Sequence record: PQ231202.1
Strand: one strand, 5' to 3'
DNA from: Escherichia phage BSBP01
Length of the DNA: 54,030 bases
Shown here: in pieces, positions 23,044-53,394 of the stretch
Position numbering within the stretch: position 1 is the stretch's first letter
Layout: the number at the start of each line of letters is the position of its first letter
Made by a program: the position numbers and the translations under genes
Notes under the pieces: model-generated
The model's input: only the letters and a program-made list of their open reading frames with translations
What the model was told of the DNA's origin: nothing
The model's database searches: none

Positions 23044-23051
23044 TATTAACC

Positions 23052-36738: not shown

Positions 36739-36793
36739 GTAAATTAATCCGTTTTGTTTGATGAGGCGCAACCATTAATTGCGCCATTGCAAC

Positions 36794-37066
36794 TTAAGCC
36801 TTCGGCGTAATGGTAATTTCTTTGGTCGCAGTTACGCTAGAGGTTGTTTTGTTTGTTGCCTTGATTGTCGCAGAAGTGGCTGTAGTCGTTGCATTGAGTA
36901 CAGTCACAGTGCCGTTTGCCGCCACAGAAACACCAGCTACAGCAGGAGTAACGGCGAAGTTGTAATCTGTTGCTGTGGAGTTCTCAAACTTAAATAGCTT
37001 GTCCACAGTTACAGTGGCATCAGAGGCAGATGCGTCCGCAGTTACAGTCCCTGCTACAGCAGACAC
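36794..37066 (-). CDS. Small Ig-like (Ala/Thr/Val-rich beta) protein
   Basis: 90 aa, repetitive A/T/V/S composition. Confidence 0.45.
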   Translation of the reverse strand: MSAVAGTVTADASASDATVTVDKLFKFENSTATDYNFAVTPAVAGVSVAANGTVTVLNATTTATSATIKATNKTTSSVTATKEITITPKA

Positions 37067-37086
37067 CGTAGGAGCTGGAGGTGGCG

Positions 37087-37560: not shown

Positions 37561-37569
37561 TGTCTTACC

Positions 37570-38634: not shown

Positions 38635-39919
38635 TTGCGTTACCCTTTTGGATGTTAGGAGGATTAGGATTTGGCTTGCCAAGGTCACAAGTTCCGAACA
38701 CGCCCGAATGGAACATGACTTCGTTTGCAACTTCGGCAGTGATAGTACCGTTGTTAACCAGCAGGTCAACAGCAAATGCCAAATCTTTAGCTCGCTTCGC
38801 TTTCTCAACGTTGGATTCAGGGAAGATATCTAACCATTCGTAGTTATATTCTTCGATGCCAAAGTGCGCCTGGACAATCTTGTCTACCACATCTAAACGA
38901 GGGTCGAACACAGAAGTCTGCAAGCCTGTCAACAAGTCGATATAGTTTACGAGGTCAGATTCGCCCGTAGCATTCATACCGTCTGGAGATGCAGAAAGGA
39001 AACGTGTAGCCGGAATACCAACTGCGGCAGCAACTATCTTCAAGTATTCCCAAATCAAATCTTTCACACCAGACAGTGCAATTGACTTGGTGTCATACTT
39101 CTCAGTATTGTCGAGAATTAAGACATTATAAATACTCTTTGCCAGCTTCATAAGTTTGAAGCGCTTCATCACAGCAGCTTCACCTTCCGGTGATGTAAGC
39201 AGAGATTGTAAGCCTTCGACAGTTACCACATCAATGGTGGCTTCTTGGGCGAGGCTGGCAGCAGCAGCAGCAGTTGTGTAGAATTGGTCAATCGTTTTCA
39301 GCAGTGGAATAAGTACCGAATCGGAATACCACATGTTACGTTGGAATTCGAACAGCGGCAGTTCAGTACCCTCGAACCGAAGGAAACGAGTGTAGTGGAT
39401 ATAGCCGGGATACCCAGCCAAAGTGTAATACTCTGGCAAACCATAGTGAGGACTCAAAGGGTCCAGAACCATAGTCCCTGCGGCAAATAAGCGTGAGCGG
39501 TCAATAACTCTCATGGATTTAATACATCCAGTCTTCAAGTTATCCAGTCGCAATGGTGTATCAAGTTTTCCCGTACCTTTCAGGTCGAGCAGAACAAATG
39601 AAGTACCATACAATCTGGCCCATTGATATGCCTCACGGAACAGCTTACGAATACGAAGTTTCTTATCCGCTTTGCGTCCTTCTTCACTATCAATATGTCG
39701 CCACTTACGCGTCATGTCTTGAGGAATGACGGTACACACTTTCTGTGCAACCCAATCCTCACGGAAGCGGTTCATAAGTTCGCGATAGTTCGCGTTCTTG
39801 TTTGAGAAAGTCCACTGGTTGAAAGTAGACTTATCTGCTTGACCGCCCAACCCCGTTACAAGGTTTTCTAACCCATCTGCAACTTTAACAGAAAGATTGT
39901 TTTTCTTCTTGGAAGTCAT
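38603..39919 (-). CDS. Portal protein
   Basis: 438 aa immediately downstream of the terminase large subunit. Confidence 0.65.
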   Translation of the reverse strand: MTSKKKNNLSVKVADGLENLVTGLGGQADKSTFNQWTFSNKNANYRELMNRFREDWVAQKVCTVIPQDMTRKWRHIDSEEGRKADKKLRIRKLFREAYQWARLYGTSFVLLDLKGTGKLDTPLRLDNLKTGCIKSMRVIDRSRLFAAGTMVLDPLSPHYGLPEYYTLAGYPGYIHYTRFLRFEGTELPLFEFQRNMWYSDSVLIPLLKTIDQFYTTAAAAASLAQEATIDVVTVEGLQSLLTSPEGEAAVMKRFKLMKLAKSIYNVLILDNTEKYDTKSIALSGVKDLIWEYLKIVAAAVGIPATRFLSASPDGMNATGESDLVNYIDLLTGLQTSVFDPRLDVVDKIVQAHFGIEEYNYEWLDIFPESNVEKAKRAKDLAFAVDLLVNNGTITAEVANEVMFHSGVFGTCDLGKPNPNPPNIQKGNASEAKPKPGSA

Positions 39920-40143
39920 TATTTCTTCCTTAGAATAGTTCCATTACCCTTAACAATTTGAATGTTGTCGGAGGTGTGGAGTCGCAGATTCGACTCGTGC
40001 TTTAACTTAACACAGTCGCTCTCTGTGGTAGAAACTGCCTCAATCACACATAAAATGTTTCCTTCCAAATCTTGAATCTGGAAGGAGTTGTTCTTGCGTG
40101 AGCGGGCATCTAAACGAGTGATAACCGCCATATTTACATCCAT
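39919..40143 (-). CDS. Hypothetical protein
   Basis: 74-aa ORF between terminase and portal. Confidence 0.35.
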   Translation of the reverse strand: MDVNMAVITRLDARSRKNNSFQIQDLEGNILCVIEAVSTTESDCVKLKHESNLRLHTSDNIQIVKGNGTILRKK

Positions 40144-42179
40144 GCGGAGTAGTTGGCACTTGGGCCTGAGAATTCGATTGCAACCATATCTGAAACGTTA
40201 TCGACACAATCGTCGTGTCCAGTACCACTACCCAAAGAAGTGAATCCAAGTATTTCACGTCTAACATGGTCGATGTGTTCATGACCAGCAGGGAAGAATA
40301 TTCTCTTTTGCGAGAAATATGGGATTGCGTTAAGGAATCGAGTTACCTTGTCATTACCATTAATCCCATCACGAGGCAATGGCAAAACTCGGACACTCCC
40401 ATCTCTGATAAATTGTTGGTTCAAGAATTGTCCGGCAGACTTGTCTTCCATGTACAGTGCACGAGGAATACAACCTACGCATTTCAAGTCCAACTTGTTG
40501 CATTTGTTCCAGAAGTCGATGATAGCAGTCTTGAGTTCTGGAGTTTCAAACTTACCGAGCATAATATCTAAACAATAAACGTCACGCTCTTTAGTCACGC
40601 CCCAATGCTTAAGGACCGAATAATCAGAATAAGATTTGGCAGTTGATGCCGTATCCGCTGTAATAAAACTTCTGACTATGCGACTTCTGTCGAAAACGTC
40701 TGGCTCATACTCTTGCCACCAATCTTCTTTGATAAGGCCGTGGCCTTGTGCAGATGGGTCGCCAGCATACTGTGAATTGTATGTGTATGGGTTAGACTCT
40801 TTCATTGCCTCCAGAGATTCTAAGCTCTTACGTGAAGGCCATAATGCAGACTTCTCTTCCTTCCTGTTCAAATTATACAGAATGGGAATAGCATGAGTGT
40901 AGTTCTGCTTCTTGATTAACTTATCATACCATTCAGCACTTCCAACACCTTTCTCAATAATCGCTGGGATATTGAGATAATGGTATTTATCAGAAGAGCC
41001 ACCACGGAGTATATAACCAACTAAATCCTGGTCGTGAACCCGCTGCATGATGATAACCATTGGTGTACGGGCACACTTAATTTGGTTTCCGTACGAATCA
41101 GTTATGCAACCATCGTTGGCAAGGCGTGACATAAAGGTGTTATCAAATCGGTCGTTGATTTCTGCTCGAACTGTGTCAGAGTAGGCATCCTTAGGTTTGA
41201 TAACGTCATCCACCACGAAACAGCCAGAGTATTTTGCAACAAGAAGTCCAGCACCTTTACCAGTTAGCTTACCACCAGTAGGTACTGCGTGCATAACTCC
41301 AGCTTTGGTTGTACCCCAGCGTTCAAGAGAACGTTTGTTAGGGTCGATTCTCACCTTCGGGAATATTCGTTGGAACAGTGGGTCCATCATTACAGCACGG
41401 ATGTAACCACTCGATTCAAGAACAACGTCTTCTGCATACGAGGTGATAATGTTATGGCTTGATTCATTGTGGCAAAATGAATACAAGGGTAATGCGATAC
41501 TCATAAGCTGAGTCTTAGAGTGTCGTGGAGGAATGGTCACTATTAAGCGGTCAATCTCACCATCAACAACCTTCTGACCAACACTGAATATTACATCGTG
41601 AAAGTCTTGTGCTTGAAATGGAAATCCCATCTGAATATGGAACTGCCATTTACCAAAGGCTTCGAAACTTTTCATCAAGATTTTGCGAACACGTTCTGCA
41701 ACCTTGGCAGGGATTACAGTTGGGTCCACGTTATGTGGGTCATGCAGAATCTTGTCTACAAGTTCATCGGTGTTATCATGCTCCGAGTTTGGCTCCTCTA
41801 GTGTGGAACCTGCAACACGGTCAGTAACACCTGCTTGAATACCTTTCTTCAACTCATCTGCATAGGCAGTTGAGTCTTTCTTGTCGCCAGAGCGAAGACG
41901 CTCAAGTTGTGCTCTGAAAACGGAACGCAATACAGCATCGTTTTCAAGACCCTGGCCTTCTAACTCTGCTTGAATTTGTTCTTCATAGCTGTCAACTATT
42001 GCAGTATTTTCTGAAATATATCGACGGAGCAATGGCAAAGATAGAATACAGAATCTTTCTCTTGAGACTTTTAATACGTCACCGTAGTGCTTGGCAAGAT
42101 ACGAGGCTACTGTATCATTAAACTCCGGTCCGAGGTCATCAGTCTTTGACATTGATTCGTTCTCTTTGTTTTTAATCAC
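40134..42179 (-). CDS. Terminase large subunit
   Basis: ATPase P-loop-like TIPPRHSKTQ and C-terminal nuclease motif GHDDCVDN. Confidence 0.85.
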   Translation of the reverse strand: MIKNKENESMSKTDDLGPEFNDTVASYLAKHYGDVLKVSRERFCILSLPLLRRYISENTAIVDSYEEQIQAELEGQGLENDAVLRSVFRAQLERLRSGDKKDSTAYADELKKGIQAGVTDRVAGSTLEEPNSEHDNTDELVDKILHDPHNVDPTVIPAKVAERVRKILMKSFEAFGKWQFHIQMGFPFQAQDFHDVIFSVGQKVVDGEIDRLIVTIPPRHSKTQLMSIALPLYSFCHNESSHNIITSYAEDVVLESSGYIRAVMMDPLFQRIFPKVRIDPNKRSLERWGTTKAGVMHAVPTGGKLTGKGAGLLVAKYSGCFVVDDVIKPKDAYSDTVRAEINDRFDNTFMSRLANDGCITDSYGNQIKCARTPMVIIMQRVHDQDLVGYILRGGSSDKYHYLNIPAIIEKGVGSAEWYDKLIKKQNYTHAIPILYNLNRKEEKSALWPSRKSLESLEAMKESNPYTYNSQYAGDPSAQGHGLIKEDWWQEYEPDVFDRSRIVRSFITADTASTAKSYSDYSVLKHWGVTKERDVYCLDIMLGKFETPELKTAIIDFWNKCNKLDLKCVGCIPRALYMEDKSAGQFLNQQFIRDGSVRVLPLPRDGINGNDKVTRFLNAIPYFSQKRIFFPAGHEHIDHVRREILGFTSLGSGTGHDDCVDNVSDMVAIEFSGPSANYSAWM

Positions 42180-42357
42180 AATCCACTAATGGCTGAGTTT
42201 GCACGGGATTGATGCGAATGATGCTGCCTAAACCAGAATCGGCCTTTAAATACAGGCGGTTTAGTGGCATGTATGAATCACAGATAGGACATTGCTGCGT
42301 TATGAAATCATCTTCTGCAATTTCATAATGGCAGTTTGGACATTGTATTGTGCGCAT
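42172..42357 (-). CDS. Small zinc-ribbon protein
   Basis: CPNC...CPIC. Confidence 0.4.
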   Translation of the reverse strand: MRTIQCPNCHYEIAEDDFITQQCPICDSYMPLNRLYLKADSGLGSIIRINPVQTQPLVDCD

Positions 42358-42412
42358 AAGCGACTCCGAATAAGATAGGAGGCCAGATAGCCTCCCTAAT
42401 TATGCGTGTCGC

Positions 42413-42742
42413 TTAATATTTAATATCGCTCCAGGCCATATCTTTATAGAAATCTTCAAGATATGCTTGGGTAGAACCAACAACCACCACAATCTTAAAT
42501 GGCAGTATCAGCGGCTTAACAGCCGACATTAAATCTTCGCGCCCACGCTTGATACGTTCGACGTTCTTGATTGTGTTTTCACCATGTGGAAGCATGAAAA
42601 CGATAACATCCGCACCTGTTTCATTGCGAACTGCAAGTGCACGGGTGAGATAAGTCCCGCCACCAGTAGAGGTGACATTAGACTTGAGGTATGCAAATTT
42701 AACTTTGCGGTTATTTACTACAACAGGTGAGGACAGTTTCAT
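42413..42742 (-). CDS. Hypothetical protein
   Basis: 109-aa ORF. Confidence 0.45.
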   Translation of the reverse strand: MKLSSPVVVNNRKVKFAYLKSNVTSTGGGTYLTRALAVRNETGADVIVFMLPHGENTIKNVERIKRGREDLMSAVKPLILPFKIVVVVGSTQAYLEDFYKDMAWSDIKY

Positions 42743-42759
42743 TTCAGATAGGTTCCAGA

Positions 42760-43359
42760 TTATTTGTAACGTTCGGCCCCATGAGTGTGGGAACCAGTGA
42801 TTTCAACAGTTCCTGGCAAAGACACTTTCACACCACCATCACCAGTAATAGAGATGCTGTGTGAGTGTAAACCGTCAGGAATATGTGGCCTTTCATGCGG
42901 TCCAAGTTCAACACGACCAGTCGAGCCAAAGCCACCTTCACCACGACCAGTTGCATTCAAGCGGTCAACTTCAACGAAATGGTGTTGAGTAGCTTTACTA
43001 ACTTGCACCTGACAAATACGTTCACCTGGTTGAACCACAAAGGCTGTGTCCGAGTCGTTGTGCAACTTAACCATAAGATTGCCACGATAATCGGAGTCCA
43101 GAATTCCTGTGCAATTTGCCAAGCGGATGCCAGACTTAAAGCCATGACCAGAACGGCTATGTACTTTGAGTTCGTATCCAACTGGAATCTCGAATTGGAG
43201 GCCAGTATCGAAAACAGCAGAGCAGCCGGGATTGATAACAACAGTGCTATCGGAGATAGTGCAAACGTCAGCAGCAGCAGCGCCAGCAGTAGCGTACACA
43301 GGTAATTTCGCATTGGGATGCACTCGTTTAACTGCAACAACTTGGGTCATACAAGACAT
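42760..43359 (-). CDS. dut: dUTP pyrophosphatase with about 45-aa C-terminal extension
   Basis: All five dUTPase motifs (AGAAAADV, RSG, GILDSDYRG, RICQ, RGEGGFGSTG), then extension ending SITGDGGVKVSLPGTVEITGSHTHG. Confidence 0.85.
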   Translation of the reverse strand: MSCMTQVVAVKRVHPNAKLPVYATAGAAAADVCTISDSTVVINPGCSAVFDTGLQFEIPVGYELKVHSRSGHGFKSGIRLANCTGILDSDYRGNLMVKLHNDSDTAFVVQPGERICQVQVSKATQHHFVEVDRLNATGRGEGGFGSTGRVELGPHERPHIPDGLHSHSISITGDGGVKVSLPGTVEITGSHTHGAERYK

Positions 43360-43361
43360 GA

Positions 43362-44000
43362 TTATTTCTCTACTTGATAAGTTACGCGTTCAATCCAGTT
43401 GAACACTTTGAATACAGAATCACCCACTTTACCATCAACTAAATGTTCGTCCACTGTTACGCGGGTAGGTGTGTCTGGGAGGTTGATGTATCTGCGAGAA
43501 TCGCCCGTGAAATCAAAACCATCACGATGCAAACGCACAATGAGGACAAAATCATAAGCAGACTCAATGGCAACGACTTCATCACCAAAACCGCCATCGG
43601 GATAAATGACATTAATAATGCCACCCATACGCCCCGCGAGTTCTTCAACACGAGCAGCTTCAACCTTACCGAAGTAGTCTTGTCCGTAGCGAGGTTTATA
43701 CACATCTTCGCTAACGTGAATAAGAGCCTGACGAGGTGTTCTGCCACCAAGACCTGCAAGGGAGATAGAGTCTTTGAGGTCACGGTCCGAAGCGTAGTGA
43801 ATAAACTTGTCCACATCAACTTGAAAGTGTTTGGCAGTATGCTCATACAGTGCATCCTTAAACTGGTGTTTAATGAACTTGCGCTTACCGAGAAAGTATG
43901 GTTCCTCGGCAGCAACAATCTTATTTGCGATGGTGTCTTTACCGCAGCCAGGAGGTCCATTGAGAATAACAGCTAGTCGCTTAATCAAAACTTTCCTCAC
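43362..44000 (-). CDS. P-loop nucleotide or nucleoside kinase
   Basis: Walker A ILNGPPGCGKDT; start uncertain because the longest ORF overlaps the ligase 3' end. Confidence 0.55.
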   Translation of the reverse strand: MRKVLIKRLAVILNGPPGCGKDTIANKIVAAEEPYFLGKRKFIKHQFKDALYEHTAKHFQVDVDKFIHYASDRDLKDSISLAGLGGRTPRQALIHVSEDVYKPRYGQDYFGKVEAARVEELAGRMGGIINVIYPDGGFGDEVVAIESAYDFVLIVRLHRDGFDFTGDSRRYINLPDTPTRVTVDEHLVDGKVGDSVFKVFNWIERVTYQVEK

Positions 44001-44736
44001 TTTTGTCTGCACGTAAACGAACGAGTGACGGGAACCGGAACTTACCAGCTTCTGTCTTCTCACGATATCGAACTTGCATAATCGAACCAATTAGCTCGTG
44101 GCGATGTTCCCACAACCACTTACGAATCAATGTGTTAGATTCTGGAATACCGTGGTCTGCCAGACAATCTTTCACCATTGAACCAGCACTGCCGTAGTTC
44201 GAAGAGATAGAACCACACATACCTTTAAGAGCACCAGTACCTTCTTTCATACCAGTAATCTTCACATCGGCGTATTTATATGGTACAATCTTCCACCACT
44301 TACCTTTTGCATCACGGACAATGATACCTTCATGACCAAGCGCCAGATATTTATCCATCAATGCCTTAAGGTTTTCATTGCTTGGGTCTTTGCACCAGCC
44401 GATGTACAAGCGTGGGTCAACAGCACCATCACTCAACTCATACACATTGTCCTGGGTTAGTGGGATGCTTGGCGGGTCAATACGTCCGAGGATGCTAGAA
44501 GTCTCATTCCAACTATTACGGAATATCTCAGCATCTCTGAACTGTAAGTGGTCCAAATGAGGTAGGGGTTTGGAATTACGACTCCAGACACTACCTGATT
44601 TATTACGGATAGCTCGAATTCCGTCAATCTTGATGAAGAGTTCACAGCGCCCTTTGATACGGCAGTCTGGGTCTTCCCAATCATGTGCGTGAGCCTTTGT
44701 GTATCTTGTACCATCATCGAGGAGCTTAATAGACAT
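43981..44736 (-). CDS. Compact ATP-dependent DNA ligase
   Basis: Motif I KIDGIR near residue 34, EGIIVR, WWKIVPYK, and motif VI-like FRFPSLVRLRADK. Confidence 0.6.
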   Translation of the reverse strand: MSIKLLDDGTRYTKAHAHDWEDPDCRIKGRCELFIKIDGIRAIRNKSGSVWSRNSKPLPHLDHLQFRDAEIFRNSWNETSSILGRIDPPSIPLTQDNVYELSDGAVDPRLYIGWCKDPSNENLKALMDKYLALGHEGIIVRDAKGKWWKIVPYKYADVKITGMKEGTGALKGMCGSISSNYGSAGSMVKDCLADHGIPESNTLIRKWLWEHRHELIGSIMQVRYREKTEAGKFRFPSLVRLRADKSEESFD

Positions 44737-45250
44737 TAAGATTCTTTCTCAGGTATTCTCGAACAGCATTCTTGCGTCCGATTTTGGTTTTAGGAACTGG
44801 CTCTATTTTAGCAAGATTGCACTTGGCAATTTGCTCTTCGTCAGACAATTTGGCAAATGCAATACACTTCTTCTCAATGACTGCATCACGTCGTGATACA
44901 CCATATCGTTCCATGTATGTAATAATGCCGTGACAATCTTTACACAGCAATTCCAAATCTTCTGGCTGAACCAGTAAAAGGTTGTCCACAAAGCGGTGCA
45001 GGTCTTCCAATTTAAGGAGGCCACCAACTTGGACTTTGTGGTTTACTTCAATATCTTTGAGCTTATACAACTTCTTGCAATGGTAGCATTGAATGTGGAA
45101 GATTGGTTTCTTTGAGTCACCAACCTTCAATGCAATGCGTCGAGATTGTATTAGCGCGAGTTTGCTTGGGTGTTTAGACCAAACACTTCGAATAGCAGAT
45201 TGGAGCCAAGATACAAACTTGGCTTCCGTTCCACAATAACCGTAAGCCAT
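44726..45250 (-). mobile_element. HNH homing endonuclease (free-standing)
   Basis: CYHC ... NH ... CKDCH pattern; between exonuclease and ligase genes. Confidence 0.65.
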
Positions 45251-45261
45251 TCCAACTCCAA

Positions 45262-46323
45262 TTATTTCTGGAGGTACTCTTCTTGAGTGAGGATACGATT
45301 CTCTTTAAGGTCAAAGTATTCGTTAATGTTCTTGTAATGCCACAAGCGAACACAATTACCTTTTTCAATTTGATGGTGCATGTAAACAAGACGGCCCACT
45401 TTGAGCAGCTCTTGTTCCCAACCATCTCCGAAGCGCACAATATATGCACCAATAACTTTCTTCAAACCTTCTGCATAGGAGGTTGTACCATCCAGCATCT
45501 CGAATGAAGCAACTGCACCAATGCCATCACGACGGAAATAAGTTTCTCCGGCTTTGGCACCAGTTTTGTAAATTCTTTCTTCAAGAACTCCGCAACCCAT
45601 AACGTTATCCGTTGAGTCGCCAATAAGCAATTGATGCAGGAAGAATTTGGGGCCATTGCCTTTAACTTCTTTCTTCTTCGACTTGCCATTATCCTTGATG
45701 ATTAATTTGAGTTCACCATAATCTTTAGGGATTACGATTTTCTCACCAATACCCTGGGTTTCACGTTCCCATTGGTAATGTTTGATTACTGGACCAACAC
45801 CACCGTTCTGCCCGATTTGGCGCAAGTCTTTGTCCAACGATGCAATCCAGACTTCATCATATGTGCAAGGACCAATGCGCTTGAGGCTCTTAATCTCATT
45901 ACGTTTGCCCATTGTTGCTTCGTATTCATGACGGGCGAATACAGCCAGAAGGTCATCTGCTTCCAGACCTTTCATCCACATCCCATTCCATGCAACCATA
46001 ATATGTGCTTTCGCATTCTTGAGGTTTTCTGGACGCCATACGTTATCACGGTTGCCCTTATAGTCAGGAGCAAATACGTGCCTCATGGTTTCAGATGGGG
46101 ATACAAAACTCATAATCTCCGTAGCGCCAGAGCGCTTGGCGAGGAACTCCATTTTGGAGTCTATGGACATTTGAATCTTAGCAAAGTTAATATCTTCGGG
46201 GTCTTTGCCATACTCTTCCGCAGCGCAGTGGCTGAATGCAACCATGTCTGCATCTACAAGAAGCAGAACTCGTTTCTTACTCACTTTGGTAAGCTCCAAA
46301 TTAAAGGCTCCCGAAGGAGCCAT
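45262..46323 (-). CDS. 5'-3' exonuclease (T7 gp6-like FEN)
   Basis: LLLVDADMVAF and LLIGDSTDNVMGCG motifs. Confidence 0.7.
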   Translation of the reverse strand: MAPSGAFNLELTKVSKKRVLLLVDADMVAFSHCAAEEYGKDPEDINFAKIQMSIDSKMEFLAKRSGATEIMSFVSPSETMRHVFAPDYKGNRDNVWRPENLKNAKAHIMVAWNGMWMKGLEADDLLAVFARHEYEATMGKRNEIKSLKRIGPCTYDEVWIASLDKDLRQIGQNGGVGPVIKHYQWERETQGIGEKIVIPKDYGELKLIIKDNGKSKKKEVKGNGPKFFLHQLLIGDSTDNVMGCGVLEERIYKTGAKAGETYFRRDGIGAVASFEMLDGTTSYAEGLKKVIGAYIVRFGDGWEQELLKVGRLVYMHHQIEKGNCVRLWHYKNINEYFDLKENRILTQEEYLQK

Positions 46324-46331
46324 ATTTATAA

Positions 46332-47198
46332 TTAGAACGGCATACCTGTACCGCCAGCAGCACCACCTTCCGCTTCACGCTGTGCTTTTGCAGCAGCCTG
46401 TGCTTCCAGTTCAGCTTTCATAGCTGCATCAACTTCTTCATCAGAAGCCTGATTCGGTACAGCGCCTTCATCGGCAGGTTTGCCGCCTAACAGTGCAGAC
46501 AGCTTGGTCTTGTAGAAATCAACACCGGAAGTAATACGGTTCTTGATTGCATACGGAGATTCGCCACCAGGCAGCTTGTTGAATACTTCCAGGTCCGGCT
46601 CAGACATGTCGAAGAAGACAGTCGGGTTAACCAGTGCTTTAGCTTCTTTCTTCTCTTTGGATTTCATCGGAGAGAAGGTAGCAACTTTGTTCGCAACCTG
46701 ACCCGCATTCTTACCTGACTGCTTGGTATATTGAACAATGCCAACAATCAGAGGTTCGCCCAACCAATCCGGCAGGTTCTTGGCAGGATGGCCCTGAATG
46801 CCTTGTTCCAGATTAGGTTTAACTTCCAGTGCATCAATCGCCTTAGCGAATTTGTAGATGTGGGAGTTCTCACCCATGAAGCCGTCAGCATTATAGGTAA
46901 ACTCAAAGTCAAACCAACGCGGCTTGTCTTCAAGATTCTTCGCCATCATGATGCCGTCATCTTCGTCTGGGTCTTGGACCATGACCATTTTACCTTCACT
47001 GTCAACTTCTTTCATGTACTCGTCGAGCAGTTCGAAAGTCACCAGAAGTTTCAGAGACGGGGTAGGATATTTAGCAGAACCAGGCTGTAAGCCCAGGTCG
47101 ATAATACGGCAAACACGAGCAGGATAACCACCCGCTTCCAGTAATGGTGCAGCAGAAGGAGTCTTGTTCGAGGCCAGTGTAGGAGCAGCAAATGCCAT
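46332..47198 (-). CDS. Putative ssDNA-binding or annealing protein (T7 gp2.5-like position), C-terminus ending PF
   Basis: 288 aa, acidic C-terminal region ending GTGMPF, located between polymerase and exonuclease. Confidence 0.35.
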   Translation of the reverse strand: MAFAAPTLASNKTPSAAPLLEAGGYPARVCRIIDLGLQPGSAKYPTPSLKLLVTFELLDEYMKEVDSEGKMVMVQDPDEDDGIMMAKNLEDKPRWFDFEFTYNADGFMGENSHIYKFAKAIDALEVKPNLEQGIQGHPAKNLPDWLGEPLIVGIVQYTKQSGKNAGQVANKVATFSPMKSKEKKEAKALVNPTVFFDMSEPDLEVFNKLPGGESPYAIKNRITSGVDFYKTKLSALLGGKPADEGAVPNQASDEEVDAAMKAELEAQAAAKAQREAEGGAAGGTGMPF

Positions 47199-47214
47199 TT
47201 TGAGTACCTTTAAA

Positions 47215-47460
47215 TTACAGTTGAGTGATAACTAGGGAGAAGTCCAGGTCGTTCATACAAGAGATTAACTCTTGCTCATTGACGACAGGACCAGATAAAG
47301 TTTTAATGAATGCCTGATACATTGAATTGGCAGCATAATCACTTCCAAATAATGTTCCAGCATTCTCGGTAATTACAGACAGCACAGCTTCCCGTGCGTC
47401 TTCACCTTTCTTGACAAAATGGAAATGGTCCACTTTGTCGAATATAGATACAACAACCAT
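47215..47460 (-). CDS. Hypothetical protein
   Basis: 81-aa ORF. Confidence 0.45.
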   Translation of the reverse strand: MVVVSIFDKVDHFHFVKKGEDAREAVLSVITENAGTLFGSDYAANSMYQAFIKTLSGPVVNEQELISCMNDLDFSLVITQL

Positions 47461-47954
47461 TAGTGAATCTCTGCGTAGTTATCGCCAAATTGTACATCAC
47501 ATGCACAATCACGATTGAGTTTAAGTTCTTTGTTGGTCCGGTCCATTGCTTCATTAAGCAAGTCCGTCCACAAATCACGGAAACCTTTCTTAACTTGGAG
47601 AATCAATTCATCATGGAATTGTCCAGACAGAAGCGGGTCACAGCCCCAACGTTCATTGCAAATTGCAATAATGTTGTTACACCAAATATCAAACACATAT
47701 GCACCAGTACCCTGACACAATGTGGAGAAGCGGTCTTTCTCGGTGCGCAATGAATACCAGAATTTGTTTACTGGATTCTGTTGCCACATCTGACCATCAA
47801 CTGTGATAACTTTGGTGTTTGCAGCAATCTCTTTAATAGACCAGTTCAAGTCCCAATATGCTTTATGCAGTCGTGCAGCAGTAGTCTGGTCACAGCCAGC
47901 AGAACGAGCTACAGTTGGCACACCAGCACCATATTGACCATTTACATTGTTCAC
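47460..47954 (-). CDS. DNA polymerase, C-terminal fragment (rest of motif B and motif C)
   Basis: Begins GQYGAG completing motif B; contains QFHDELIL motif C; ORF opens with GTG immediately after an in-frame stop. Confidence 0.75.
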   Translation of the reverse strand: MNNVNGQYGAGVPTVARSAGCDQTTAARLHKAYWDLNWSIKEIAANTKVITVDGQMWQQNPVNKFWYSLRTEKDRFSTLCQGTGAYVFDIWCNNIIAICNERWGCDPLLSGQFHDELILQVKKGFRDLWTDLLNEAMDRTNKELKLNRDCACDVQFGDNYAEIH

Positions 47955-48083
47955 ATGAAGTCGTTAATTTCATGCCGGAACGAATCCAGCTGCATGTCAC
48001 CATGCAGAGCAGACTATATCATCACCGACCTATGTCGGGTCCCCCGTTTCCACCCACTTGGGTGTACGCCTTACGGCTAGTCG

Positions 48084-48521
48084 TTACACGTTCATGAAAG
48101 CATCTTGACAATCGTGATGAAGCTGGTGGCAACGCTTACAAAGCAACTCAAAGTTGCTCCTAACATTATTGCTTCTATCATGGTCACGATGATGAATCAC
48201 ACGTTCCGTATAGTGTACGTTCAGCAGATTCTTACCACACCTTTCACAACACTTAAGTTCTTCAAGCATTTCCTTTCTGGCACGTACATATTCACCTTTG
48301 CCGGAAGAGTAGGTTTTGCTTTCTGGACCTTTTGCGTGTTCAAAGTTTCCAGTGCCAGCACCACAGTTTATACCTTTCTTAATACACTGATTAACATAAG
48401 AACGGTCTCTGCACTCTTGCGCTGCAATATCAGAACAAGGTTTGCACTTGGAACTTCTTGGTCCTGTGGGAATGAACATCTCTCCACAAGAACATTTCTT
48501 AGGTTGGTAATTTCTTTTCAT
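48084..48521 (-). mobile_element. HNH homing endonuclease inserted inside the DNA polymerase gene
   Basis: Cys-rich zinc motifs and HHRDHD..N..CKRCHQLHH; lies between the two polymerase fragments. Confidence 0.8.
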
Positions 48522-48590
48522 GCTTCGCTCGGTATTGTCTCTGCGGCAGAGAGTTCCACCGAATTAAAGGGATTTTACATGCGCATCAAT

Positions 48591-50048
48591 TTACGCATAG
48601 TTTGTAGTCTTAAACATTGGACGTTGTTTACACTTCTTAATCCCGTCCTTGTGGTCCTGAGATTCCTGTTCGGTAATAAATCCACCAATTACGCCGATTG
48701 CAAGGTGAGCATCATAGTCTGGTGCCAACTGCTTCTTAACGTATTCAGGGTCATACATCCATTGGAAGTGGTGTTTACAGCGGTCTTCCAGTGAACACAA
48801 GTCAGAGCCTAACTGTTCGTAGTCTTCGCGCCACGCTTCCAACATTGAACGCAGTTCTTCACCGCCAAATACACGAATAGAAGGGAGGTTAACAAGTTCG
48901 CGGTGTTTAAGACGTAAAGTATTGGTAAGGCCACCACATCGTGCAGTAAGGTATCCGTCTTCATCGACGTCGCGAAGGAAACCGTTAACAACAGAGAGAC
49001 GGTGTTTATATACGCCCATCCCAATAAGATGTTGAATACCAGAGTCGGGGTTTCTTTCCGCCAGCTTATGCAAGCTCGGACATATTTCAGGATTGCCATC
49101 TTCATCCTTCACAGTGATTTGTGGAATCTGGCGAGTTTCACCTGTTTCCTTATTACGGTCGAACTTAAAGGTTTCTGGTTCCCAACCTAGGCTGAACAAC
49201 CAATCTTTGATTTGAACATGTGAACCAGCATTAGGCTTCTTGTAACCTTTAAGAACCTTGATAGCCAGGTCTGGGTCTTTCCAGTCCAAACCGTTCGCAT
49301 CACAAATAGCCTTCCACTTAATTCCAGTGGCAGACAGTTGCCCGTTCATCTTGTGGCATTTAGCTGGACGGGTCTTGATAACATACTCCGGAACACGAGG
49401 CATTGATGCCTCCAATGCGTCCGTCTTCTCTTTAATCATTGGTTCCAGCTTGGCCTTAAATGCCAATGCCTTCTCAATGTTCAGCTTCCAGCGAGTGCGT
49501 TGTTGAATAACTTGTTGACGAGCTTTTGTCATCAGATATTCAACGAAGCGTTTAACTTCGCCAGGAGATTTATAAATCTTCAAGAGTTGAATGTATTGCT
49601 GTTCCCACAGCTTCAACTGAATCTTGCAGTCTTCCATCACACGATGGTTGTACTCTTCTTGAGTTTGATTTTCCCAATCTTCAATGACTGGTTTTGGCAC
49701 ACCAAACTCTTCGCCGTAACCTTCTAAGCCGTGCTTAACACGACGAGGTTGCAGATACCAACTAATAAACAAAGTATCAATAAACACACACTTGGAGGTA
49801 TCGTATCCAAGGAATATGAGCGCTTCATTATCAAAGCACATACTATTGTGCATGACCAGCGTAGGTCCGGTATCCAAGAATGCTTGTACAGATTTTCTGT
49901 CAGTCCACTCTATTACATTCTCTTCCCTGGTTTGTATATCTATAAAACCAATATTGTGCAGACGAGGTGCGGACTGTTGCTTCATTTGCTCAAGCAAGCC
50001 TGTAGTCTCTATATCTGCGGCATACATATTATTCCAAGGGTATAACAT
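48591..50048 (-). CDS. DNA polymerase (family A), N-terminal fragment with 3'-5' exonuclease domain
   Basis: Exo motif AADIETTG; ends ...RPMFKTTNYA inside motif B. Confidence 0.8.
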   Translation of the reverse strand: MLYPWNNMYAADIETTGLLEQMKQQSAPRLHNIGFIDIQTREENVIEWTDRKSVQAFLDTGPTLVMHNSMCFDNEALIFLGYDTSKCVFIDTLFISWYLQPRRVKHGLEGYGEEFGVPKPVIEDWENQTQEEYNHRVMEDCKIQLKLWEQQYIQLLKIYKSPGEVKRFVEYLMTKARQQVIQQRTRWKLNIEKALAFKAKLEPMIKEKTDALEASMPRVPEYVIKTRPAKCHKMNGQLSATGIKWKAICDANGLDWKDPDLAIKVLKGYKKPNAGSHVQIKDWLFSLGWEPETFKFDRNKETGETRQIPQITVKDEDGNPEICPSLHKLAERNPDSGIQHLIGMGVYKHRLSVVNGFLRDVDEDGYLTARCGGLTNTLRLKHRELVNLPSIRVFGGEELRSMLEAWREDYEQLGSDLCSLEDRCKHHFQWMYDPEYVKKQLAPDYDAHLAIGVIGGFITEQESQDHKDGIKKCKQRPMFKTTNYA

Positions 50049-50055
50049 AATTACC

Positions 50056-50463
50056 TCAGTATTTTGGAGTATTCTTCATGTGCCAATTTTCGTGACACTG
50101 CTTACAAAGCCATCTTACCATCAAGGGTTTCGAATAGTCGTCGTGGTGTGCCTCCAGCTTCTTATCTTGAGTACACATCATACATCTGTTTGGTTTAACT
50201 ATCCTTCCAAACTTAAGTGCAGCATTTACCAAACTTCTTGCACGCTCCCTCTCAGGCCGCACTTCTCGGTATCTTTTGCACCTGGCATTGTTGAGTTCCC
50301 GCTCTCGTTCAATATTACGAACAGGCTTCTCTGGTAATGGTGCAGATTTGTACTCTGCACGGTACTTTAAGCTTTTGCACAACTTGCACCAAGATGAACT
50401 CTTGTGAAAGCCTGCTTCATCTTTAGGTACTTTGCACTTAGGACAAATTTTCATCATTTCCAA
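50056..50463 (-). mobile_element. HNH-type endonuclease (free-standing)
   Basis: CPKC, CKLC and C-terminal HHDDYSKPLMVRWLCKQCHENWH. Confidence 0.55.
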
Positions 50464-50518
50464 TTATTGTAAAGTGAGGGCTACGCTGGTGGGCGAACCA
50501 TGCAGCGCAGCAGCTCTG

Positions 50519-52282
50519 TTATTGATGTGGACCGTTCTTCTTAGTAAGCTGAACAATCTCTTTGGTTTCGAACAGCGAGTCATCCCAAGAACGTTGAATA
50601 ATTCGACCAGATTCGGTGTCATAATACGTCTTGAAGCCTTCTGTTTTACCACTCTTACGAGCTTTGATGGAACGAATAATAGAACAGTTTGGGTCAACTG
50701 CCTGGCTATTACGCTCAAAGCCGAACATACCATGAGAATATTTAGCAGCAGCACGTGAGCCAGTAAAGTCTGACTTCTTGATACGTCCACCATCTTCATG
50801 AGGTCGCTGACCTTTTGCAACAGGGTTAAGGTGCGACAGAATATTTACATGGAACTGATATTGGTCTGCCAGCTTAGTAATATCTGCATACAGCTTACCC
50901 AAGAAGTCGTTCTTCTCTGAGGCAGAAATCCCTTCCGATAAGTAGGTTAAGTTATCAAGGACAAACATATCAATGTCTGGTCCAATCTGACGAAGAATCG
51001 TCTTTAACCCATCCCAGGTTTCATAAGGGTCTTCTCCAGCTTGCTTGCGGTCCCAAATCTCCATGTTACGAAGCATCTTCGCAGCAGTTTGACGGAACTT
51101 AGCTTCATCATATCGAGGGTCTTCACGAGTAAACGCAGGTTCCCAATATGGCAAGTTGTCATTAAGGCCAGCCATTCGGCGCAATGTTTCTGTAGGAGTT
51201 TCCTCCATGTATGCAGTAAACACTCCCCAATCGTGCTTGGTAATGTTGTGATGCACAATCTGACGGGACAGCGTAGTTTTACCACCACCTTCTGCACCAC
51301 CGATTGTAATAACTTCGGCTCGACGTTGACCAAACATTAAGTCGGTTAACTTTGGCCAAGGATAGTCCACACCCTGTTCAACCTCGTCATCAAGCTCTTC
51401 CATAAGAAGTTCTTTGTTGACAAGTGCTGTAGGCAGAGGACGAGCCGCACGGAACACAACAGCAGATTGAGTAGCTTTGAGCAAGCCACGCTTCAAACAA
51501 TCGTTGGCATCGTTAGCTGGAAGTGTTGCAATCATTGCACCAGGCAACAATCGACACGCTTCTTTTGCAGCTTTACGTCCAGGTTCGTCATCATCAAATA
51601 CGATAACAACCTGTTCCCAACGTTGCTTAATTTCTTCTGCAACTGGTGACAAACATTTGTGTACGGAATCACTCCCGTCACTCAAACTAATTACAGCAAA
51701 ATCCAAATCTTCATATGCACCACCACGGTTCATAGTCTTGAGGATTTGACGCAATGCGATACAGTCTTCTTCACCTTCAGTGATGAACAATGTCTTACCG
51801 CCAATTGCTTTTGCAGCCAACCAGTTGTAGGGTTCGTTGCCTTGTGTATCGCCAACAGACCACATAACTTTCTTGTTCAGAAGTTTAATCTTCCAACGAA
51901 CAAGTTTGCCATTTTTGGTGTAGCCATGTGCCAGAGCATTTGGAGTCTTCCCATCATACTCTGAATACAGAAGTCGAACACCAGCAGCTTTCCAGAATTC
52001 TGGTTCGATGCTGCGATGGGTTAAATCAAACGGAGGACAAGCAGTGATTTCATCAACTTCTTCCTGAATTTCTTCTGGAGTCTTGACTTTAATCTCTGGA
52101 ATGTTCTCCGGATTATTGCCATAAGGATTTGGTACTAGAACGCCACACGCAAAGCAGTAACCAGAGAAGTTCTTATTACCAGCTTCATCGACATTCAACC
52201 AAACCTGTAAAGACTTGCCAGATGTGGATTTACAGTCTGGTACATCGTGCTTAATCTTAGCCACACATTGCTTGACGTTCAT
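50519..52282 (-). CDS. Bifunctional DNA primase-helicase (T7 gp4-like)
   Basis: N-terminal zinc finger, TOPRIM FITEGEEDCIAL and VFDDDEPG, helicase P-loop GGAEGGGKTT. Confidence 0.85.
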   Translation of the reverse strand: MNVKQCVAKIKHDVPDCKSTSGKSLQVWLNVDEAGNKNFSGYCFACGVLVPNPYGNNPENIPEIKVKTPEEIQEEVDEITACPPFDLTHRSIEPEFWKAAGVRLLYSEYDGKTPNALAHGYTKNGKLVRWKIKLLNKKVMWSVGDTQGNEPYNWLAAKAIGGKTLFITEGEEDCIALRQILKTMNRGGAYEDLDFAVISLSDGSDSVHKCLSPVAEEIKQRWEQVVIVFDDDEPGRKAAKEACRLLPGAMIATLPANDANDCLKRGLLKATQSAVVFRAARPLPTALVNKELLMEELDDEVEQGVDYPWPKLTDLMFGQRRAEVITIGGAEGGGKTTLSRQIVHHNITKHDWGVFTAYMEETPTETLRRMAGLNDNLPYWEPAFTREDPRYDEAKFRQTAAKMLRNMEIWDRKQAGEDPYETWDGLKTILRQIGPDIDMFVLDNLTYLSEGISASEKNDFLGKLYADITKLADQYQFHVNILSHLNPVAKGQRPHEDGGRIKKSDFTGSRAAAKYSHGMFGFERNSQAVDPNCSIIRSIKARKSGKTEGFKTYYDTESGRIIQRSWDDSLFETKEIVQLTKKNGPHQ

Positions 52283-52286
52283 TTAT

Positions 52287-52967
52287 TTATTCCTGGTTGG
52301 TCAGAGCCTTCCAACAAATTGGGAATAGTTCTGACATGATTTTATTCACTTCTTCCGCAAACAAGCGAACTTCATATTGCGCATGTTCGGAGGAACGTTG
52401 ATTATACATAGATGCCCAGCCATAAAGTGAGCCAGTCCAAATCCATTCAGTCATCATGGATTGTGGAAGAACCATGCGAGCTTGCTCTGGGGCAATCCCC
52501 AAACCAATTAACGTTTCATACTCTGCGATGCAAGCCTTGTTATAGCTTTCCATGCGATAATGAATATCGTCAGCAAAATCTTGTGGCAACGGTTGTGCAG
52601 TCTGAGTCATCAACTTTTCAGGACGACCAAATACAACACCTGGAACAAAGCATTCAATAGAGATTGCTTCGCCATCTTTGTAACGACGGCTAACCTCATT
52701 CCAACTAAAGCCAGTTTGATGTTTGCCAAGCTGACGTGCAATGAAGATTGGAGCTTTGCAACGCAATGTTACCTGTGCATGACGGAACGGCGTAATGTGT
52801 TTATGCTTTGCAAGAAACTCAATCAGCTTCTCGTCACGTAAAGATATTTCATGTGACTCTGCACCATAAGAAACTCGTGCAGCATTAACAGTTGTGAGGT
52901 CGCTGCCCATTGAATCTACTAATGTTGCGGTTATTTGTGGCTTAACCATTATTTGCGTATTCTCCAT
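52287..52967 (-). CDS. thyX: Flavin-dependent thymidylate synthase ThyX-like
   Basis: Aligns by eye along its length to ThyX; RHR position reads KHQ. Confidence 0.7.
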   Translation of the reverse strand: MENTQIMVKPQITATLVDSMGSDLTTVNAARVSYGAESHEISLRDEKLIEFLAKHKHITPFRHAQVTLRCKAPIFIARQLGKHQTGFSWNEVSRRYKDGEAISIECFVPGVVFGRPEKLMTQTAQPLPQDFADDIHYRMESYNKACIAEYETLIGLGIAPEQARMVLPQSMMTEWIWTGSLYGWASMYNQRSSEHAQYEVRLFAEEVNKIMSELFPICWKALTNQE

Positions 52968-53394
52968 GATATATTTTTCTTGCTACCTTGATAGCAGCCT
53001 CGGCATCTTCGAGATTGTCAAAGCTGCCAACGTATATTCGTTTACCATCTCCAACACGAATCCTCGCCACAAACTTTCCGCGAGCATCTTTATGCACACC
53101 TTTTACCCCAGATGTGTTGTTAGAGTTAATTCTTCTGTTGTGACAGTTCTGCAACTGTGTTGCTTCTCGCAGGTTGGATGGAACATCGTTAAAAGTGTTT
53201 CCATCAATATGGTCAACCTTATCTACAATCTTGCCAGTATTCATGTAGTACACAAGTACGTGCCTGCAAACACTGTAGTGCTTGCCGCCAAGGTATAGTG
53301 CTGTTTTGGCGTACCTTCCACTGCAAGTCCAATTTATTTGGTCAAACCTTTTTGCAGCCGTGTCTAACACAAATTTCTTGGACAGCCTATTCAA
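52942..53394 (-). mobile_element. HNH endonuclease with AP2-type DNA-binding domain
   Basis: HIDGN..N HNH core and GVKGVHKDARGKFVARIRVGDGKRIYVGSF AP2-like segment. Confidence 0.65.

Follow-up and report, generated by a model that had tools for sequence, protein, structure and literature searches.

Escherichia phage BSBP01 as a member of the Chaseviridae with a predicted group I intron in its DNA polymerase gene

The ICTV profile of the Chaseviridae (2022) describes a family of myovirus morphology whose members encode an RNA polymerase (RNAP) related to that of the Autographiviridae as well as their own DNA polymerase and helicase/primase, and whose linear, non-permuted dsDNA genomes of 52-56 kbp have a G+C content of 39.3-52.5% and direct terminal repeats of ~3 kb. 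The description of phiEcoM-GJ1 (GJ1), the type phage of the genus Carltongylesvirus, dates from 2008, and the same gene set in a single orientation was reported in the ST32 paper. The gene order common to the GJ1 group starts with the RNAP gene, small early genes and the genes for SSB, an L-Ala-D-Glu peptidase, an antirestriction protein, ThyX, the primase-helicase and polA, continues with exonuclease, ligase, dUTPase, TerL, portal, major capsid protein, sheath, tube and the SLT-bearing tape-measure protein, and ends with baseplate, fibres, holin/endolysin and the small subunit of ribonucleotide reductase. Escherichia phage BSBP01 resembles this group in its single coding strand, a genome of ~53 kb, 44% GC and a local DNA identity of 87-96%.

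We are highly confident that the window, i.e. the whole stretch of 54,030 nt analysed here, is the complete, circularly assembled genome of a virulent myophage of Escherichia/Shigella type that belongs to the Chaseviridae, subfamily Cleopatravirinae, genus Carltongylesvirus (phiEcoM-GJ1 group), and that its mixed appearance is the normal, long-established design of this family. The first 127 nt of the contig are identical to the last 127 nt, which indicates circularisation with an assembler overlap, so that any terminal repeat would be collapsed and invisible in the assembly. The remaining 53,903 unique bp, with a GC content of 43.9%, fall within the family range, the RNAP is recognised by Pfam RNA_pol and PHROG 414, and the phage has its own DNA polymerase and helicase/primase; the myovirus morphology is predicted from the genes for sheath, tube, tape measure and baseplate. 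BSBP01 aligns collinearly from end to end with its nearest deposited genomes, PO103-1 (ON778463), 2KOFFS (PV615261) and Ecp_YSF (OR327751), as well as with GJ1, and our own VIRIDIC-style calculation against these four genomes gave intergenomic similarities of 89.0, 88.7, 87.0 and 72.2%, respectively. When the window was divided into thirds, many deposited Chaseviridae reached 87-96% DNA identity over the larger part of each (megablast), and the same gene order recurs in dozens of deposited phages, including PO103-1, 2KOFFS, Ecp_YSF, ST32 and GJ1; the lineages in the records of the relatives read Chaseviridae, Cleopatravirinae, Carltongylesvirus. Compared with the genus threshold of ~70% genome-wide nucleotide similarity, as quoted in the 4HA13 paper, the value of 88.7% to 2KOFFS, a classified member of Carltongylesvirus, places BSBP01 in this genus, while the 72.2% to the type phage is borderline. 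By contrast, the species boundary of >95% identity over the genome length (ICTV Chaseviridae profile) is not reached, the highest value among the four genomes being 89.0%, nor do any of the top megablast matches combine >95% identity with full coverage. With whole-genome similarities by our own calculation of ~89% to PO103-1 and 72% to GJ1, BSBP01 is therefore probably a new species inside the known genus. It also differs from its relatives in individual elements: the polymerase gene contains a predicted group I intron and, within it, an HNH gene, both absent from PO103-1, 2KOFFS, Ecp_YSF and GJ1, the HNH genes that GJ1 carries before the primase-helicase and TerL genes are missing, and a terminator-like hairpin is found instead of the tRNA-Arg of the Chaseviridae.

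All of the replication and virion genes listed in the original prediction are present on the minus strand, where all features named below are located, and pass profile searches (Pfam, PHROGs). Minus-strand ORFs make up 92.7% of the window and every supported gene lies on this strand, in agreement with the proposed unidirectional layout; two sizeable plus-strand ORFs in gaps had no family match in PHROGs. The core of the description is correct: one strand combines replication and transcription genes of T7 style with virion genes for a contractile tail. The region to which it was assigned, 40134-53394, contains TerL and the replication module, but the tail module is located outside, at ~17939-34495, and the T7-like RNAP gene (13362-15302) was missing from the gene list.

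At the right edge of that region, a 150-aa homing-endonuclease-like ORF with HNH_3 and AP2 domains (52942..53394; Pfam HNH_3 E 7.7e-9, AP2 E 1.2e-5; PHROG 99 E 1e-42) forms a polymorphic insertion upstream of the gene for the flavin-dependent thymidylate synthase ThyX (52287..52967; Pfam Thy1 E 5.5e-42); it is absent from PO103-1, 2KOFFS, Ecp_YSF and GJ1, and SA91KD and Pel53 carry it (~80%) at this locus. The bifunctional primase-helicase (50519..52282, 587 aa) comprises Toprim, DnaB_C and AAA_25 domains (Pfam), and its six best PDB matches, named DNA primase/helicase or DNA helicase (E 4e-31 to 1.6e-12), are what we take to be T7 gp4 chains; judged by these domains and matches, the enzyme is clearly T7 gp4-like. 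Between it and the polymerase lies a free-standing endonuclease ORF of 135 aa (50056..50463; PHROG 2340 E 1.6e-32), and 2KOFFS has an ORF annotated as "endonuclease" in the corresponding place. On the other side of the polymerase, the FEN-type 5'-3' exonuclease (45262..46323; PHROG 107 E 1.2e-58; Pfam 5_3_exonuc_N with 31 bits, just under the cut-off) is the functional counterpart of T7 gp6, and is accompanied by a 174-aa HNH endonuclease homologous to GJ1 gp41 (44726..45250; PHROG 1985 E 1.4e-59), an ATP-dependent DNA ligase (43981..44736; PHROG 114 E 1e-39; Pfam DNA_ligase_OB_2), a dNMP kinase (43362..44090; PHROG 139 E 1.6e-38) and a dUTPase (42760..43359; Pfam dUTPase E 1.8e-22). An orphan small subunit of ribonucleotide reductase (Ribonuc_red_sm E 3e-48) is encoded within 15926..17939, together with the holin and a cell-wall hydrolase endolysin (Pfam Phage_holin_3_1 and Hydrolase_2).

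The polymerase gene was described as split, and two ORFs are indeed present; however, they appear to be divided by an intron rather than to encode the subunits of a two-subunit enzyme. Exon 1 (48593..50048, within the ORF 48591-50048; PHROG 17 E 8e-67) covers codons 1-485 plus one nucleotide, and homology to the uninterrupted GJ1 gp37 ends on this side at 48595. Exon 2 (47460..47938, within the ORF 47460-47954; Pfam DNA_pol_A E 1.7e-7) encodes the C-terminal 159 aa, matches positions 219-381 of the 381 positions of the DNA_pol_A profile and has 96% DNA identity to the 3' end of GJ1 gp37. The 654 nt in between (47939..48592) interrupt the conserved KxxNYxxQYG polymerase motif and match the whole group I intron model of Rfam (RF00028, E 2e-6 to 9e-6), with 32.5 bits, i.e. 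below the gathering score of 50. At the predicted 5' splice site AUGCGU is followed by AAAUUGAUGCGCAU, with a U-G pair in P1, and the intron ends in AAAUG with a terminal G. Within it, a 145-aa HNH homing endonuclease is encoded (48084..48521; PHROG 25862 E 6e-25; weak Pfam HNH and HNH_3 matches). Joining the exons yields an in-frame CDS of 1935 nt in which NYACQYG is restored and 620 of 644 aa are identical to GJ1 gp37. A mobile group I intron of 654 nt carrying an HNH endonuclease, as predicted from these features, explains the split polymerase: two polymerase ORFs are seen because the intron and its HNH gene interrupt the gene, and splicing would be required to produce the 644-aa polymerase.

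Alternatively, the polymerase could be a true two-polypeptide enzyme of 485 aa and 164 aa, with an unspliced, free-standing HNH gene between the two parts, as in some T4-like phages. The score below the Rfam gathering threshold, a GTG in frame (47954) as a possible start codon of exon 2, and the abundance of free-standing HNH genes in the BSBP01 genome would fit such an arrangement, yet we regard it as improbable, since the insert matches the full group I model at E ~1e-6 with canonical boundaries, the break is placed within a catalytic motif, and excision of exactly 654 nt restores both the frame and NYACQYG as in the uninterrupted GJ1 enzyme. Moreover, the intron has a 3' catalytic core with homologues in group I introns annotated in further phage genes (PhAPEC5/7, vB_AsaP_MQM1 and vB_EcoM_G2285; 72-80% identity over ~140 nt), and the ribozyme parts are more conserved than the ORF, with one compensatory base-pair change. 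Among 50,697 records, the full element was found in one other phage (two records). The phage vB_EcoM_4HA13 (4HA13; Sabourvirus, Chaseviridae), which has the same family architecture but belongs to another genus, carries the same group I intron and HNH ORF in the identical polymerase codon, and its polymerase CDS is given in RefSeq as a join of two pieces. Between the two phages, the intron shows 86.6% identity, compared with ~75% for the flanks (74.5% for exon 1 and 76.2% for the primase-helicase gene).

Group I introns with HNH endonucleases occur in the DNA polymerase genes of SPO1-type and T7-like phages. The predicted BSBP01 intron resembles those of other phage polymerase genes in that it invades a highly conserved catalytic motif and that the HNH ORF is looped out of the ribozyme, but the gene that it occupies and the site of its insertion are particular to polA of the Chaseviridae. 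The nearest relatives of the polymerase itself outside the family are enzymes of Acinetobacter and Pseudomonas myophages (35-41%), with those of T7-supergroup podophages at 22-23% identity, and a search against PDB sequences returned no match. Of the replication proteins proposed to be of T7 type, the primase-helicase is clearly gp4-like, and the polymerase is, outside the family, closest to those of other myophages.

The single-subunit RNAP (13362..15302; Pfam RNA_pol E 1.3e-18; PHROG 414 E 1.6e-96), encoded by the first gene in the conventional orientation of the family, lies in a region that is ~87% identical at the DNA level to the gp01-containing segment of GJ1. By its sequence it is distantly T7-like: it has 646 aa compared with 883 aa in T7, and the similarity is weak (E 0.006; E 0.0058 for the match to T7 RNAP 1aro). 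Upstream of the gene, a consensus scan identified a putative early promoter of host sigma-70 type, TTAACG-18-TATTAT (15565..15594). The surrounding 83 nt are 94% identical to a GJ1 segment annotated as "putative host sigma70 promoter". In addition, the motif ACATTAGTTGGATGTGAA is found in eight copies, compared with 0.10 expected, all on the coding strand and at positions syntenic with GJ1 annotations. Since the ICTV profile refers to the phage-RNAP promoters of the Chaseviridae as not yet identified, this motif is regarded as a candidate promoter.

TerL, the large terminase subunit (40134..42179; PHROG 38 E 1.3e-96; Pfam Terminase_6C), is followed by the head module (34492..39919), assigned from Pfam and from the annotations of collinear relatives, with the portal (38603-39919; Phage_portal_3 E 3e-75), a DUF2213 protease/scaffold protein (E 5e-31), the major capsid protein (35731-36771; Major_capside E 5e-49) and head-tail connectors. 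The segment 31411..34495 encodes a tail completion protein, sheath (32526-33974; DUF3383 E 8e-55; PHROG 205 tail sheath E 3e-93), tube (32061-32516) and tail chaperones (Pfam, PHROGs including PHROG 280). The baseplate genes (22399..27680) specify the hub (PHROG 196), a Dit-like protein (Pfam Dit_like), a small protein, the spike (N-terminal domain PF18352), a gpW-like wedge and a gpJ/gp6-like wedge (PHROG 120 and PHROG 6, the latter at 23052-24206 with E 3e-51) and a DUF2612 protein, so that the sheath and baseplate assignments, whose failure in profile searches the original prediction had named as grounds for refutation, withstand such searches. Three tail-fibre genes (21203-22402, 19812-21203 and 18450-19802; PHROG 8147, PHROG 5454; Laminin_G_3) and a fibre assembly protein (17939-18469; Caudo_TAP) complete the tail genes. 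The tape-measure or virion protein (27747..31418, 1223 aa) has a C-terminal SLT lytic transglycosylase domain (Pfam SLT E 1.6e-7). Embedded in the same protein is a YqaJ-type PD-(D/E)XK nuclease domain (aa 459-595, nt ~29633-30044; Pfam YqaJ E 3.5e-12), which matches the exonuclease 3syy in the PDB (E 2.6e-7) with its SPDG...EHK aligned to SPDG...EIK; both domains are also found in GJ1 gp62, and a nuclease domain of this type inside a tape-measure protein is worth a look.

BSBP01 shares with the T7-like phages (Autographiviridae) an early single-subunit RNAP, the unidirectional layout, a fused primase-helicase of gp4 type, a family A polymerase, a FEN-type exonuclease and an ATP-dependent ligase. 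In contrast to their short podovirus tail, it has genes for a contractile tail, and since BSBP01 encodes a sheath, tube, tape measure and baseplate, it is not placed in the Autographiviridae. Its head genes match other Pfam families than those of T7-like phages, and its genome of ~53 kb is larger than that of T7 (~40 kb). On the virion side, the tail had been called Mu/P2-like, which is accurate as far as a generic contractile-tail core is concerned: sheath, tube, hub, spike, gpW-like, gpJ/gp6-like and gpI-like proteins and an SLT-bearing tape measure are shared with Pam3, XM1 (7kh1), E217 (8env) and phi92, which are simple contractile-tail myophages with solved tails, and Mu and P2 are of this broad structural class as well. 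However, the nearest solved sheaths are those of Pam3 (8hdr), 7kh1 and Phi92 gp130, the nearest baseplate chains include 9zd7 gp88, 9ndy wedge protein 2, Phi92 gp145, 8env gp44, Pam3 gp22 and 7kh1 gp16, and none of the significant solved-structure matches for sheath and baseplate comes from Mu or P2. To our knowledge, Phage_portal_3, DUF2213 and Major_capside are not head families of Mu or P2 either. Mu and P2 are temperate, whereas the BSBP01 lineage is virulent and encodes a replisome of its own.

An infection cycle may be outlined by comparison with T7 and from the family literature. The linear genome, with a direct terminal repeat of ~3 kb that would be collapsed in the assembly, would enter the cell with the RNAP end first, in line with the entry model of T7 type that the Myduc genome announcement put forward. 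The host sigma-70 RNA polymerase would transcribe the phage RNAP gene from the early promoter, and the phage RNAP would in turn transcribe the remaining genome in one direction from the conserved promoter-like motif. A minimal replisome of T7 style, consisting of the gp4-like primase-helicase, family A polymerase, SSB, FEN exonuclease and ligase, would then copy the DNA, supported by ThyX, dUTPase, dNMP kinase and the ribonucleotide reductase small subunit, and packaging of the product would yield a virion with a contractile tail of simple type.

The combination of T7-like and myophage features could be taken for a recent recombination event, in which the replication and transcription cassette of a T7-like podophage was newly joined to the structural cassette of a Mu/P2-like myophage, giving rise to an undescribed genus. 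That the best-characterised homologues come from different morphotypes (T7 gp4 as opposed to the sheath and baseplate structures of myophages) would be consistent with this reading, but we consider it very improbable: the same junctions and order are found in dozens of phages of Escherichia, Shigella, Yersinia, Erwinia, Pantoea, Pectobacterium, Proteus and Aeromonas, the lineage is already classified as a family, the polymerase is closest to the enzymes of other myophages and not to that of T7, and chains of Mu or P2 are absent from the nearest solved tail proteins. Close collinear relatives rule out a recent chimera of T7-like and Mu/P2-like modules. The module composition is likewise unbroken, with a GC content of 0.443 and 0.452 and correlations of 0.86 for tetranucleotides and 0.88 for codon frequencies. 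An artefactual join of two phages from a mixed sample, to which the assembler-made contig with its terminal overlap might point, has a negligible probability, since the full-length order is identical in independent isolates that different laboratories sequenced.

The original prediction did not recognise the combination as a described genus and named a close relative with the same gene order as grounds for refutation; many such relatives exist in an ICTV-ratified family. The term "chimeric" is misleading for an architecture that is family-wide across several host genera. With no compositional break between the modules, this architecture is an old, stable family design and not a recent chimera, and the gene combination of BSBP01 is real but not new, because it is the hallmark of the recognised family Chaseviridae.

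Escherichia phage BSBP01 is an ordinary phage of the Chaseviridae. When each third of the window was compared by megablast with 50,697 phage records, it matched many phages of Escherichia, Shigella and Yersinia at 87-96% identity over most of its length. The close relatives include PO103-1, Ecp_YSF, 2KOFFS, SA91KD, SKA49, ST32 and phiEcoM-GJ1 (GJ1, the type phage of its genus), and the lineage in the relatives' records is Chaseviridae; Cleopatravirinae; Carltongylesvirus. Four full genomes were compared with the window by VIRIDIC-style reciprocal BLASTN, and all four are collinear with it, circular permutation and strand aside, with intergenomic similarities of 89.0% for PO103-1 (ON778463), 88.7% for 2KOFFS (PV615261), 87.0% for Ecp_YSF (OR327751) and 72.2% for GJ1. 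The suggestion of the original prediction that the gene combination does not belong to a described genus thus fails, since close relatives with identical gene order are already in the database. Under ICTV criteria, with cut-offs of >95% for a species (ICTV profile of Chaseviridae) and about 70% for a genus (4HA13 paper), these similarities place BSBP01 within Carltongylesvirus, of which it is probably a new species, judged against the four genomes compared in full.

Replication genes in the manner of T7 do lie next to myovirus-like virion genes, as was observed, in an architecture that was known before. The predicted replication genes are all present: a primase-helicase of the Toprim/DnaB type, a family A polymerase split into two pieces, a 5'-3' exonuclease of the FEN type, an ATP-dependent ligase, a dUTPase and ThyX. 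A dNMP kinase also belongs to this set. As for the virion, the sheath passes a profile search (PHROG 205, E 3e-93), and the assignments of the tube, the 1223-aa SLT-bearing tape measure, the spike, the gpJ/gp6-like wedge and three fibre genes were confirmed; the set also holds TerL, the portal, a DUF2213 protease/scaffold and the major capsid protein, and the baseplate and tail further comprise a hub, a Dit-like protein, a gpW-like wedge, a DUF2612 protein and a fibre assembly protein. The span assigned to the whole arrangement, 40134-53394, covers TerL and the replication module, whereas the tail genes are found at ~17.9-34.5 kb. The most diagnostic gene, a single-subunit RNA polymerase (RNAP) at 13362-15302 (Pfam RNA_pol E 1.3e-18; PHROG 414 E 1.6e-96), was missing from the predicted gene list. 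GJ1 was reportedly published in 2008 for this combination of traits. Chaseviridae are lytic myoviruses with linear genomes of 52-56 kb and terminal repeats of about 3 kb, which encode a large single-subunit RNAP, like the Autographiviridae, as well as their own DNA polymerase and helicase/primase (ICTV profile of Chaseviridae). The same replication genes, with all ORFs in one orientation, were described for ST32 (ST32 paper), and a T7-like, transcription-assisted entry of the DNA was proposed for Myduc, on the grounds that the gene order begins with the RNAP and that a single strand carries all genes (Myduc genome announcement), so that together these sources make the myovirus/T7-style combination the published hallmark of the family.

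The label T7-like suits transcription and the helicase-primase. For the primase-helicase, the six best solved-structure matches are primase/helicase chains (E down to 4e-31), which we take to be T7 gp4, and at the level of sequence the protein is unambiguously gp4-like. The RNAP matches that of T7 (1aro) at E 0.006, with a length of 646 aa vs 883 aa, and is only distantly T7-like. Neither the spliced polymerase nor the 5'-3' exonuclease found a match in the PDB sequence search, and relatives of the polymerase were therefore sought by tblastn against phage genomes. Outside the Chaseviridae, the nearest polymerases are those of Acinetobacter (~41%), Cellulophaga (38%), Pseudomonas Otagovirus-like (35%) and Vibrio (34%) phages, which have genomes of 73-139 kb and for the most part carry the myophage "M" in their names; by contrast, the polymerases of T7-supergroup podophages (SIO1 and a pelagiphage) reach 22-23% only. 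The description of the tail as Mu/P2-like applies in the sense of a generic simple contractile-tail core and not of a specific likeness: among solved proteins, those of Pam3, XM1 (7kh1), E217 (8env), Phi92 and others come closest to the sheath and the gpJ-like wedge, and the solved-structure match tables for these two proteins contain no Mu or P2 chain. Furthermore, the two modules are indistinguishable in composition (GC 0.443 vs 0.452, tetranucleotide r 0.86, codon-frequency r 0.88), which argues against a recent chimera.

The minus strand holds nearly all long ORFs, and 92.7% of the 54,030 nt is covered in a simple non-overlapping ORF call. Two ORFs on the plus strand that fall into gaps (85-321 and 15748-15996) were rejected as genes, as they have no PHROG match; this, together with a promoter-like motif confined to the minus strand, supports the predicted unidirectional transcription. 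Positions 1-127 are identical to 53904-54030, as expected from the k-mer overlap of a circularised assembly, so that the window contains a single, complete genome (53,903 unique bp, G+C 43.9%), in which the direct terminal repeat of ~3 kb typical of the family would be collapsed and not visible. ARAGORN detected no tRNA in the window, and Rfam at gathering thresholds gave no match over its whole length. An orphan ribonucleotide reductase small subunit is encoded at 15926-17026 (minus strand) without a large subunit, as is also annotated in GJ1. Likewise, the annotation of GJ1 has both of the distinct peptidoglycan hydrolases seen here, namely an M15 L-Ala-D-Glu peptidase encoded with the early genes (5847-6260, minus strand) and a Hydrolase_2 protein adjoining the holin (17026-17580, minus strand).

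From the "putative phage promoters" of 20 nt in the annotation of GJ1, the consensus AAACATTAGTTGGATGTGAA is obtained. Its conserved 18-mer core, ACATTAGTTGGATGTGAA, matches the window eight times at ≤3 mismatches, vs 0.10 expected, and always on the coding (minus) strand, at 2382-2399, 4565-4582, 8440-8457, 12324-12341, 13241-13258, 15369-15386, 27694-27711 and 47338-47355. The sites are mostly intergenic and largely syntenic with those of GJ1, and the strand-specific 18-mer is a candidate promoter of the phage RNAP; this support bears on a promoter that, for the Chaseviridae, is listed as not yet identified (ICTV profile of Chaseviridae). At 15594-15565 (minus strand), upstream of the RNAP gene, BSBP01 has retained the putative host sigma-70 promoter of the GJ1 annotation. 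In the same upstream region, 15565-15650 (minus strand) contains two or three tandem ATTAA(C/T)GAGACTAGAATTGT elements with sigma-70-like hexamers, recalling the cluster of early host promoters in T7. BSBP01 differs from GJ1, ST32 and Ecp_YSF in lacking their tRNA-Arg, although the flanks of the locus are conserved: a long hairpin that leads into a T-run on the coding strand replaces 78 nt (1285-1362, minus strand). A 62-nt part of this element (1294-1355) shares 98.4% identity with a stretch that carries no annotation in about 50 Stx1-/Stx2a-converting lambdoid phages. A different tRNA was rejected for the 62-mer, which matches no RNA family in Rfam and forms a plain hairpin before the T-run, and by its sequence the replacement appears terminator-like.

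The split of the polymerase is best explained by a mobile group I intron that houses an HNH gene, and for which splicing and homing are inferred. In an alignment with the uninterrupted gp37 of GJ1, homology ends at 48595 and resumes at 47938, and on the minus strand Rfam in E-value mode matches the group I intron model over its full length at 48602-47990 (32.5 bits vs a gathering threshold of 50, E 2e-6 to 9e-6). When the junction is read directly, exon 1 ends in ...AACUAUGCGU at 48593, its terminal U pairing with a G in the P1 helix (AUGCGU/GCGCAU), and exon 2 starts with GUCAAUAUGG at 47938. The intron thereby spans 48592-47939 (654 nt, minus strand), has G as its last nucleotide and is inserted in the NYACQYG motif. 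Its removal in silico leaves an in-frame CDS of 1,935 nt and restores the catalytic motif NYACQYGAG, with 620 of the 644 encoded residues identical to GJ1 gp37. The intron carries an HNH ORF of 145 aa (48084-48521, minus strand; PHROG 25862, E 6e-25), and its 3' catalytic core resembles annotated group I introns in unrelated phage genes. Among the phage collection, the whole element occurs in one other phage only, vB_EcoM_4HA13 of the genus Sabourvirus (two records), at the identical site and with 86.6% identity; there the polymerase CDS is annotated in RefSeq as a two-piece join, which alone marks the intron, the paper on this phage being silent on it (4HA13 paper). Between the two introns, mismatches are sparser in the ribozyme segments (2/71 and 14/146) than in the HNH ORF (72/438), and a compensatory change is seen in one hairpin (CACCC...GGGUG to CAUCC...GGAUG). 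Since the intron is more alike in the two phages than the primase-helicase gene (76.2%) or exon 1 (74.5%), the comparison is suggestive of a passage between genera.

The HNH ORF of the intron is one of four endonuclease genes in the replication module (52942-53394, 50056-50463, 48084-48521 and 44726-45250). The first, at the right edge of the predicted span and upstream of ThyX on the minus strand, is a homing-endonuclease-like ORF with HNH_3 and AP2 domains. It is a polymorphic insertion: SA91KD and Pel53 have it at this locus too (~80%), and all four genomes compared in full lack it. The record of Staphylococcus phage Pel53 (PP952070.1), with Staphylococcus hyicus entered as host, is ~88% identical to BSBP01 over 70% of the early region. 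Because of this identity to an enterobacterial Chaseviridae genome and the shared HNH-AP2 insertion, a mis-assigned host or contamination seems likely for this record.

Some novelty remains in one item alone, a nuclease domain embedded in the tape measure. Within its gene (27747-31418, minus strand), a YqaJ-type PD-(D/E)XK domain (aa 459-595, nt 29633-30044, E 3.5e-12) is placed between the N-terminal region and the C-terminal lytic transglycosylase domain, as gp62 of GJ1 also carries one. Its SPDG...EHK residues line up with the PD-(D/E)XK motif in 3syy, a solved exonuclease (E 2.6e-7), and the lambda-exonuclease/YqaJ-type domain and its catalytic motif are apparently intact. By tblastn, Chaseviridae phages of Escherichia, Yersinia, Erwinia, Pantoea and Pectobacterium have the domain within their tape-measure gene (55-99% identity), whereas the only matches outside the family, at about 26-36%, are RecE-like recombination exonucleases that stand alone. 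In the phage collection the fusion is confined to Chaseviridae, and it is conserved across the Cleopatravirinae. A local rise in GC to 0.51 coincides with 29633-30044. A limited search of the literature found, among the titles and openings of abstracts listed, no published account of the fusion or of a role as virion nuclease. In general, tape measures enter the cell by ejection before the DNA does, and if this applies here, the embedded domain would be delivered with the virion. That the tape measure thereby acts as a nuclease, processing the phage's own terminally repeated ends or attacking host or competitor DNA, is a speculative and rather unlikely reading; if true, processing of its own ends could serve, e.g., end-joining or recombination-dependent replication.

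The combination that was pointed out re-identifies, from raw sequence, the founding trait of the Chaseviridae, and as stated it matters little. Useful outcomes are the firm taxonomic placement of BSBP01 and the pointing out of a previously unremarked feature, the nuclease domain of the tape measure, while the intron explains the split polymerase and may provide a small example of intron spread within one phage family.
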